Of a stretch of 64,000 nt of DNA, positions 62,793 through 64,000 are shown piece by piece. Position 1 is the stretch's first letter. Each line of letters begins with the position of its first letter. Location of the stretch: contig OZ242311.1 of NCBI GenBank assembly GCA_965207885.1, forward strand, positions 3,904,001 through 3,968,000. Reading direction: 5' to 3'. The stretch is from Candidatus Latescibacterota bacterium (GTDB lineage: Bacteria; Latescibacterota; UBA2968). The notes under the pieces are model-generated. The model was not told where the DNA came from. It searched no databases and was given only the letters and a program-made list of their open reading frames with translations. A program made the translations under genes and the position numbers.

Positions 62793-62895
62793 AAGAAGTA
62801 AGAAGTGAAAAGTGAAAAGTGAGAAGTCCACCCAATATCTCCCCAGGACGGATGCTTCTTCACCTTCACACTTCTACCTTCACACTTCACACTTC
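62792..62895. repeat. Heptamer-repeat imperfect inverted element, second copy
   Basis: (AGAAGTA/AAAAGTG)n, spacer, (CACACTT)n; overlaps the stop of the RNAP-like gene. Confidence 0.85.
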
Positions 62896-64000
62896 AACCG
62901 GTAACCCTACAAATAACCGACTATACTCATCCGTCAACGGATCGCGCTCGCCCTTTTGCGCTGCGCGGGCAAATACCACACCCGGCTTTTCCGACCTGCG
63001 CGCCCGCGCCAAAACGCCATACCCACCGGGCGCACTTTGCGTTTCCAGATCGCTCTGAATCGCCAGCATCTCCGCCAGCGCATTGGCCAACCCCCAGCGC
63101 GCACCAATCGCCCGCGCAAAAAGCTCCTCTGGCGTCAGCCCCTCCCTAAAACCGTGCTTCAGGGGCGTAAACCCACCCTGATCATTCCGCGTCACGCCCT
63201 GGGGAGCCACATAAAGTCTAACCTGCTGCCAATTGGCACGCGCACCACATTCCACCAGAAGCGCGGGAATCCCGAGATCATCGTCGTCATATCCGCGAAG
63301 CTGTGCCAACACAGCCGACACCTCATCGGGATAATCGCGCCAGACATCTGGGTCATCGCCCTCTGGCGGATCGGGCCAATCGAGCGACGAACCGATAAAC
63401 GCACTCATCGACGCCCCTGTCTTACGCGCGGCATCAAACCCTCTATCCCACAATCGCGCTGCCAGATCCAATGCAGCCTTCGCGCCATCGCGCGCCATTG
63501 CATCCGCCATCCAGTCCATCACCTGATACTTATCGACAAATAATCCCTTTCGCTCAACCTCATCGCCGACAATCTCCGCAATCTCCTGCAACCCCTCGTC
63601 CGTCATACTCATATACGCCAGGCCAAACAGCGCGTCGTGCATCGGGTGTACCTTCTCGCGTGCAATCAGACCCAGATCTCGATTCAGATGCGCCTCAGCC
63701 GACAGATGCGCTTCAGCCGACCGCTGTCCCTCTTCAGTCACCGGCACAAAAATCGCCACCTGATCGCCATCAAAATCCATATTCATCATCTTGCAAATCG
63801 CCACACACACGCGCACAGCATCGCCTTCCACGCGCACCGGACGACACGCCACAAAAGCCATTGGCGAAAACGCGGGATTGCGAAGCACCACAGTCCATAA
63901 CTCAGCCATAGCCGCATCCAGAGCTTTCTCTGCTTTTCTCGACCGCCTATCCACTTCTTCAACTCCCACCTCTCTCGCTGCAAACGGCCCAAACAACGTC
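62887..64000 (-). CDS. Divergent, shortened RNA polymerase beta-prime-like protein (5' end outside window)
   Basis: [51 protein letters not shown]; frame open to the window edge. Confidence 0.8.

Follow-up and report, generated by a model that had tools for sequence, protein, structure and literature searches.

Cellular transcription is thought to rest on a five-subunit core RNA polymerase of about 400 kDa. YonO of the Bacillus prophage SPbeta is a single chain that carries both double-psi barrels, has no trigger loop and is reported to act as a DNA-dependent RNA polymerase that is both efficient and processive (PMC5467207). According to the same report, YonO shares a few catalytic residues with multisubunit polymerases and shows no further detectable homology to them. 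Orf6 of the yeast killer plasmid pGKL2 is described as an Rpb2::Rpb1 fusion of 982 amino acids (aa) without trigger, rudder or lid (PMC2919709). That account also gives eight invariant positions for the two-barrel superfamily, including the Arg and Pro of the NRAP motif and a beta acidic residue, and presents the funnel and switch 2 as common to its putative DNA-dependent members. Here we analyze a 64,000-nucleotide (nt) window of a Latescibacterota chromosome (C1:3904001-3968000 of the source genome, G000), at whose end lies part of a gene for a putative single-chain miniature RNA polymerase, hereafter the mini-polymerase, together with the extracytoplasmic function (ECF) sigma gene that accompanies it. 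Positions beyond the window are given on a second stretch, L001 (C1:3964001-3984000), where the L001 coordinate plus 60000 equals the window coordinate.

The complete mini-polymerase open reading frame (ORF) comprises 1,029 codons on the minus strand (L001 2887..5976; C1:3966887-3969976) and extends 1,977 nt past base 64000. A first-pass annotation, made from the window sequence alone, had placed the ORF within 62887-64000; its start in fact lies outside the window by that distance. The first codon is TTG and the second ATG, and because close relatives begin MSLSV..., the protein probably starts at this ATG and is 1,028 aa long. The window part by itself matches Pfam RNA_pol_Rpb1_2 (E 3.1e-08, 34.5 bits vs a cutoff of 25.3). 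The whole protein matches Rpb2 domain 3 (residues 142-200), Rpb2 domain 6 (residues 335-464, E 3.7e-40) and then Rpb1 domain 2 (residues 698-755, E 2.2e-15). The earlier description of the window part as a beta-prime paralogue is right as to its beta-prime-like character but does not hold, as worded, for a protein on its own: it is joined to a beta-like part upstream, which had been suggested as something to look for and which is intact.

To place the domains, a family profile (alignment A1, 61 members) was aligned by hhalign to RpoB and RpoC of the same genome, whose numbering is used throughout. Mini-polymerase residues 86-523 align to RpoB 390-1255 (E 7e-54) and residues 582-971 align colinearly to RpoC 262-769 (E 1e-33), with an identity of 26-33% to these two proteins. 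The beta double-psi barrel motif, of the GDK...RHG.KG type, reads GDKLSNRHGFKG, and a family-specific linker domain occupies about residues 524-581. The RpoC match covers the clamp coiled-coil (residues 584-620), switch 2 (RALFSGRSV, aligned to RpoC GKRVDYSGRSVI), the DFDGD barrel, the funnel (residues 816-945, aligned to RpoC 577-733) and the bridge helix, in which it ends. No counterpart was found by hhalign for RpoB 1-389 (lobes), 542-592, ~641-715 and 782-1021 (flap), or for RpoC 1-261 and ~770-1290 (trigger loop, jaw). The best local match of the C-terminal block (residues 990-1027) is to RpoC ~1290-1327 and is weak (E 0.069); we offer it only as a suggestion that this block may correspond to the conserved end of the beta-prime C-terminus.

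By these alignments, the window part supplies the C-terminal third of one chain in which cut-down beta and beta-prime subunits are fused. The chain keeps the two double-psi barrels together with the fork, switch 2, the clamp coiled-coil, the funnel and the bridge helix, and lacks the beta lobes, the beta flap, the zinc/clamp N-terminus of beta-prime, the trigger loop and the jaw. An AlphaFold2 model built on the family alignment has a predicted local distance difference test score (pLDDT) of 94.5 and a predicted TM score (pTM) of 0.92. Foldseek comparison with the PDB returned bacterial RNA polymerase beta and beta-prime chains as the top folds (E ~1e-24, TM ~0.3-0.4) and no PDB structure resembling the whole protein; viral predicted structures matched less well (best E 1.5e-17). 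Much of the first-pass annotation agrees with these results. The DFDGD site translates from the positions it gave (Table 1), the stretch following the last Asp amounts to 291 residues (1029-738) where about 290 had been estimated, all of the colinear RpoC-like blocks that it listed and the C-terminal block are present in the translation, and the absence of a trigger loop is borne out by the end of the RpoC alignment in the bridge helix. Its view of the gene as a second, non-canonical two-barrel polymerase also stands, the frame being open and none of the three Asp codons lost.

The residues expected at the active site are strongly conserved. In A1 (n=61), the Asp triad is kept in 59 (D734), 59 (D736) and 58 (D738) members, and the basic residues of the beta barrel in 56 (K340), 57 (K348) and 61 (R344). 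The equivalents of the NRAP-motif residues are R699 (51/61) and P701 (54/61), the beta acidic residues are E234 (48/61) and D237 (45/61), and switch-2 R637 is found in 55/61; all of these are present in the Latescibacterota protein of the window. Mapping onto the eight superfamily positions of PMC2919709 was made through the hhalign alignments to RpoB and RpoC. As judged from its sequence, the mini-polymerase has every feature of the two-barrel superfamily that was tested, namely the DxDxD barrel, the basic-residue barrel, the Arg, Pro and acidic residues, and the funnel with switch 2.

Comparison with 15 relatives yielded a ratio of nonsynonymous to synonymous substitution rates (dN/dS) of 0.12-0.18; the beta half and the beta-prime half give similar values, and so does the window part. 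The branch leading to this gene carries 6 unique nonsynonymous and 15 unique synonymous changes, and the nine closest sisters range from 2/15 to 12/14. The gene is under purifying selection without sign of relaxation.

Changes at near-invariant beta-prime residues, such as NMDFDGDQ for NADFDGDQ, could be taken as marks of a decayed duplicate of rpoBC, or of a misassembly of the only copy. Such an origin has practically negligible probability and is refuted on several counts: the 1,029-codon frame is open, the same deletions recur in hundreds of full-length homologues, the dN/dS values are low, the predicted fold is very confident, and contigs from the likely source runs (X1) match the studied stretch with zero differences. 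Canonical rpoB (1,257 aa) and rpoC (1,363 aa), whose separate presence had also been proposed for checking, are intact with full Pfam domain sets at C1:3.68 Mb, ~285 kb away. The mini-polymerase itself scores 113.5 bits with the canonical RpoC model TIGR02386 (cutoff 963.5) and 169.1 bits with the canonical RpoB model TIGR02013 (cutoff 801). NCBIfam holds no model for the family, all matches being far below cutoffs.

Compared with bacterial RpoB and RpoC, the mini-polymerase shares colinear homologous blocks with the same barrels, fork, switch 2, coiled-coil, funnel and bridge helix, but is one chain of 1,029 aa as opposed to two chains totalling 2,620 aa. Full-length RpoB-RpoC fusions of the Helicobacter/Wolinella type have the same order in one chain (1,948-2,522 aa) and are the next-best matches after the family itself (about E 1e-60). 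They are, however, housekeeping enzymes with all domains, and the mini-polymerase scores 176 vs 4632 with NF011417 and 168 vs 5372 with NF007172. Like YonO, it is a single chain with both barrels and no trigger loop; as YonO is described, it is set apart by its matches to the Pfam models for beta (E 1e-40) and beta-prime (E 1e-15). This domain-level homology, with no phage record covering at least 80% of the query, differs from a YonO-like class defined by residue-level similarity only and a phage context. YonO is also prophage-borne, whereas the mini-polymerase is chromosomal and absent from the phage collection searched, and no sigma partner is reported for YonO. The closest resemblance among reduced two-barrel polymerases is to pGKL2 Orf6, in the fusion order (beta-like, then beta-prime-like), the near-equal size and the similar set of lost parts. 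Orf6, however, is eukaryotic, plasmid-encoded and derived from Rpb1/Rpb2, with ~250 alignable residues and no sigma. Going by its description, Orf6 and the mini-polymerase look like independent reductions. Unlike the known reduced two-barrel polymerases, whose mode of action it would share, the mini-polymerase is a derivative of the bacterial type, chromosomal and sigma-paired.

The family is large. A word-indexed protein search returned 808 matches, and among the 120 best matches listed most are 1,000-1,067 aa long at full coverage, with some shorter fragments. Several listed members lie on contigs of 5-8 Mb, and the few source names given read "hypothetical protein". In an exhaustive search, 361 cluster representatives reached E<=1e-30, and full-length RpoBC fusions came up only at about 1e-60. 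A scan of species genomes confirmed 232 relatives, of which 80 loci were kept, and locus counts below refer to these. By record title, the 80 loci belong to Latescibacterota, Poribacteria, Chloroflexota (Ktedonobacteraceae, Anaerolineae, Herpetosiphonaceae), Planctomycetota, Armatimonadota, Gemmatimonadota, Hydrogenedentota and a Moanabacter. The family spans at least eight phyla. The exact sequences of the polymerase and sigma studied here are not in the protein collection searched. Full-text literature searches, and term searches within PMC7826278 (ECF reclassification) and PMC11515920, found no description of the family; paper supplements were outside the scope of these searches. The family is chromosomal and widespread, and looks undescribed. 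In the ESM Atlas there are several other single-chain clusters of ~1,200-1,800 aa with both Rpb2_6 and Rpb1_2, mostly named "hypothetical protein" and with taxa not recorded, and further fused polymerase-like families may exist.

In the account of PMC2919709, every other single-chain or reduced two-barrel RNA polymerase so far described is encoded by a virus or a plasmid. By analogy with YonO of SPbeta or the jumbo-phage enzymes, the mini-polymerase might transcribe a prophage, plasmid or transposon that carries it. Its patchy occurrence would suit such a carrier: among 168 Latescibacterota genomes, 65 have the polymerase and whole genera are without it (e.g., 0/15 in g10), and at one locus (L068) an IS200/RAYT-like transposase gene adjoins it. 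We nevertheless regard a mobile-element polymerase as very improbable. No family member was found by tblastn in 50,697 phage records, nor any among 72,556 plasmid records; none of the matches there covers >=80% of the query, and all are <60% identical and fall on ordinary rpoBC or jumbo-phage genes. On either side of the family's loci lie ordinary chromosomal genes, which vary from lineage to lineage, and all 21 genomes of the genus (the source genome and 20 others) carry the polymerase at the syntenic place. A FastTree phylogeny of the family largely follows phyla (10 phylum-label changes vs a shuffled mean of 34.6), with long branches flagged. Latescibacterota appear in at least four places of this tree, and the long branches leave transfer events unplaced.

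Of the 80 loci, 79 have an ECF sigma gene directly upstream of the polymerase gene and on its strand; at the exception (L068 4107..4538), the sigma's place is taken by the transposase ORF, a tyrosine transposase as labelled from its translation, and a divergent ORF. Sigma and polymerase genes overlap by 4 nt (stop/start) in 29 of these 79 loci and otherwise overlap in 1; they are separated by 0-300 nt in 38 and by >300 nt in 11, mostly through an inserted gene. Clustering of all flank ORFs found no other gene, including any anti-sigma gene, that is conserved family-wide. ECF identity is clear in relatives: the sigma of locus L009 scores 120.9 bits with TIGR02937 (cutoff 42.9) and has full-length Sigma70_r2 and r4_2 domains. 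The sigma linker carries a family-specific P-x-W-M-I-D motif, in which P121 and W123 are invariant in 29 sequences. A profile of this sigma gave a bimodal result over the 168 phylum genomes (best E<=1e-50 or >=1e-38), with both genes in 62, the polymerase only in 3 (G143, G146 and G149, the last with the polymerase at a contig edge), the sigma only in 1 (G156, at a contig edge) and neither in 102. Apparent sigma::polymerase fusions at L080 and L084 were rejected as ORF over-extensions, long frames without a sigma domain.

ECF sigmas are normally co-transcribed with their anti-sigma. In this family the gene in that place is the mini-polymerase, often overlapping the sigma gene, and the clamp coiled-coil is retained, so the protein could have been kept mainly as a mimic of the core that holds the sigma through its coiled-coil, with catalysis dispensable. 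We consider this quite improbable, given that the whole active site (Asp triad, barrel lysines and the invariant R344) is conserved, that purifying selection is even over the beta and beta-prime halves, and that a decoy of a thousand residues would be costly.

Just upstream of the sigma gene is a bipartite motif, TGAAC-N16-GTGTC (usually TGAACY...CGGTGTC). It was found in 36 of 41 dereplicated upstream regions, where the best word pair in ten shuffles reached at most 6, and in 63 of the 79 loci, 61 of these 63 copies having a spacing of 16 nt. Scanned with a matrix made from 35 distinct copies, the 6.2-Mb genome shows one site >18 bits, that of this operon. The exact core (10 bases) occurs 7 times, with roughly 12 estimated by chance. 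All 21 genus genomes have the motif at this locus, and 5 share one identical second site (reversed-pattern control, 2 hits). Five genomes from other lineages contained 10, 0, 8, 3 and 3 matches to TGAAC-N15-GGTGTC, vs 1, 3, 3, 2 and 3 for the reversed control. Ten of 12 extra sites examined from other lineages fall inside open frames of >=100 codons. One intergenic site in Poribacteria (TGAACCTCTCAAACCCCATCGGTGTC; L096 1001..1026, G168) stands ~180 nt upstream of an alpha-carbonic-anhydrase-like ORF, a single case in which chance is possible; the remaining site, at L094, is likewise not within a long frame. No convincing wider regulon was found in the source genome (matrix and core scans), the genus or the five other-lineage genomes. 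The listed GTG start of the sigma gene falls within the -10-like GGTGTC, and a TTG 27 nt downstream (L001 8316) follows AGGAGG; the true start is probably this TTG. The motif looks like an ECF-type private promoter that stands out only at this operon in this genome. The module resembles autoregulated ECF modules in its partner sigma with regions 2 and 4 and in a GAAC-type -35 element with fixed spacing upstream of its own gene, and differs from them in having no conserved anti-sigma, a polymerase as the co-transcribed gene and the P-x-W-M-I-D linker motif.

On a normal polymerase, the clamp coiled-coil is the docking site of sigma region 2 and the beta flap holds sigma region 4. We propose a sigma-paired minimal RNA polymerase, a two-protein holoenzyme, and hold this reading with evenly divided confidence. 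The sigma would switch the operon on and would bind the mini-polymerase via the retained coiled-coil, and the resulting holoenzyme would make RNA on DNA without a trigger loop, as YonO does. We infer DNA-templated synthesis because switch 2 and the funnel, which PMC2919709 associates with putative DNA-dependent members, are kept, and because YonO is described as processive without a trigger loop (PMC5467207). The retained coiled-coil, the overlapping genes and the lack of a conserved anti-sigma favour a physical complex of sigma and mini-polymerase. A complex prediction (polymerase residues 280-1029 of A1 with sigma alignment A2, whose first row is the intact L009 sigma) gave a median of 0.23 vs a mark of 0.32 and counts neither way for binding.

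Several observations weigh against this proposal. With the flap counterpart apparently absent, the placement of sigma region 4 is left without obvious means, and an ordinary ECF sigma with ordinary promoter geometry fits the host core enzyme just as well; the missing flap and this geometry together speak for the host core as the enzyme that turns on the operon. A sigma that guides the mini-polymerase only to its own promoter would form a loop without visible output, no further promoters having been found here. A few members also lack catalytic residues (2-3 of 61 per Asp).

The sigma might instead be a switch only, turning on the operon with the ordinary core polymerase. The mini-polymerase would then act sigma-free, a specialised RNA synthase whose templates could be, for example, RNA or single-stranded or nicked DNA. 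The typical ECF sigma, the canonical spacing and the missing flap are all in keeping with this division of roles, as is a motif that marks only this operon, which is expected if the output gene lies within it. The two-barrel enzyme QDE-1 is described as having both DNA- and RNA-dependent activity (PMC9508822). Against a sigma-free mini-polymerase stand the retained coiled-coil at the main docking site of sigma, the 4-nt overlap in 29 of 79 loci, suggesting coupled production of the two proteins in equimolar amounts, as would suit subunits of a single complex, the occurrence of this sigma type without the polymerase in just 1 of 63 cases (the one at a contig edge), and the lack of an anti-sigma gene conserved alongside. 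We rate this arrangement as rather doubtful.

The state of the sigma gene in some genomes also bears on both the holoenzyme and the switch-only arrangement. Relative to its close relatives, the sigma gene of the source genome lacks 147 nt (49 codons), in frame, between two 12-nt near-repeat copies (junction ~L001 8257-8268), and only positions 44-71 of the 71-position Pfam region 2 model remain. In X1, a 56-nt contig of depth 70 crosses the deletion junction without difference, between flanks of depth 76-92; it has <31 letters on either side of the repeat and thus does not form a formal bridge. X1 also holds a second related strain at about one third of the depth (L001 ~5711-5985; contigs of depth 23-25 with 10-13 differences), and its contigs therefore break at variable places. 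Contigs of an independent DNA run (X5) and an RNA library (X16) continue into the undeleted form of the sigma at this point. We take the sigma deletion as real and recent. In G143 the sigma is reduced to a C-terminal remnant (L102 3834..4103) beside an intact polymerase ORF of 1,047 aa, in G146 a deletion runs from sigma residue ~61 into polymerase residue ~92 (L103 about 3094-3322), and in G140 the sigma match contains an internal stop (TGA). The persistence of intact polymerase genes beside a damaged or deleted sigma, in the source genome and G143, together with the interrupted sigma of G140, counts against the two-protein holoenzyme and is in line with a sigma that acts as a switch only. 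Because the sigma of the source strain has lost regions 2.1-2.3, the module here may be silent or sigma-independent.

Relatives' polymerase and sigma genes are both present as contigs in RNA libraries. In X16, a 3.7-kb contig from a relative (94% identity) covers the polymerase gene, and in X17, from another study, a 2.4-kb contig from a relative spans the polymerase start and the ABC exporter gene that lies between sigma and polymerase in this sub-clade. These contigs are a hint of expression, presence alone not being proof of transcription. Uncovered parts in the RNA runs (e.g., 6793-7722 in X16) are uninformative, as the contigs there come from relatives without the ABC insert.

The mini-polymerase is a chromosomal, vertically stable and strongly conserved single-chain derivative that keeps the sigma docking helix and is nearly always sigma-paired. 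If active, it reveals what the cellular polymerase can do without, makes initiation with sigma by an enzyme lacking trigger loop and flap directly testable, and offers engineering a compact orthogonal transcription unit whose short promoter stands out once in this genome. It also points to a physiological role in poorly studied phyla (Latescibacterota, Poribacteria, Chloroflexota, Planctomycetota, Armatimonadota and others). The proposal can be carried further, and then only tentatively: a fused chain of ~115 kDa (mass from length) and an ECF sigma, with their own promoter TGAAC-N16-GTGTC, might form a complete, self-contained second transcription system that needs no alpha, omega, flap or trigger loop. 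If so, this would be the smallest sigma-dependent RNA polymerase known and a natural experiment revealing the cellular enzyme's minimal core, one that at least eight phyla have retained on their chromosomes, possibly for transcription while the main polymerase is blocked.

Table 1. Coordinates of the mini-polymerase gene, its predicted parts and the neighbouring features.
Feature	Coordinates	Strand	Remarks
Mini RNA polymerase gene, C-terminal 370 codons and stop (residues 660-1029)	window 62887..64000	-	frame 62887..63999 (370 aa) open to window edge
Polymerase residues 1-659	L001 4001..5976	-	N-terminal domain, beta fork, beta double-psi barrel, linker domain, clamp coiled-coil and switch 2, as predicted
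DFDGD catalytic Asp triad codons (D734, D736, D738), within NMDFDGDQ (63760-63783)	window 63763..63777	-	translation
Bridge-helix segment, residues 949-980	window 63037..63132	-	long helix in AlphaFold2 model; to residue 971 aligns with own RpoC up to 769
Conserved C-terminal block (RAA..G..DPL..LFVG), residues 990-1027	window 62896..63009	-	near-invariant columns in alignment A1
ECF sigma gene	L001 7870..8343 as listed	-	lacks 147 nt in frame (regions 2.1-2.3)
Promoter-like element TGAACCTTCGGGCATTGGGCGGTGTC	L001 8339..8364 (C1:3972339-3972364)	-	in front of own sigma gene
ABC exporter gene (ABC_membrane and ABC_tran, 620 aa)	L001 5989..7851	-	between sigma and polymerase, this sub-clade only
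BlaI/MecI-type repressor gene	window 62275..62661	-	226 nt downstream of polymerase stop; 14/80 loci
BlaR1-like M56 peptidase gene, three TonB_C repeats	window 60257..62275	-	14/80 loci

The remaining neighbours vary between lineages. The ABC exporter was found by tblastn in 12 of the 80 loci, and in other close relatives the sigma gene adjoins the polymerase gene. The BlaI/BlaR1-like pair downstream is lineage-specific context, all of its loci being from close relatives, and is outside the family-wide cassette.

DksA-type proteins bind the secondary channel of RNA polymerase. Upstream of the sigma gene on the minus strand are genes for a 315-aa protein without family match (L001 8421..9368) and a 345-aa protein with a DksA/TraR C4 zinc finger (L001 9358..10395), separated from the sigma promoter by a hairpin followed by a T-run, as read by eye. 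This pair occurs in 18 of the 80 loci, including Latescibacterota loci whose polymerase is only 46-58% identical. In view of the channel binding of such proteins, a functional link of the DksA-type protein to the mini-polymerase is possible.

Further downstream of the mini-polymerase, also on the minus strand, a 602-aa ORF (window 58351..60159) contains many "AIDALG...D.RA"-type repeats that appear HEAT-like by eye, and a 300-aa ORF (window 57169..58071) carries an HEFAH motif and transmembrane-looking segments.

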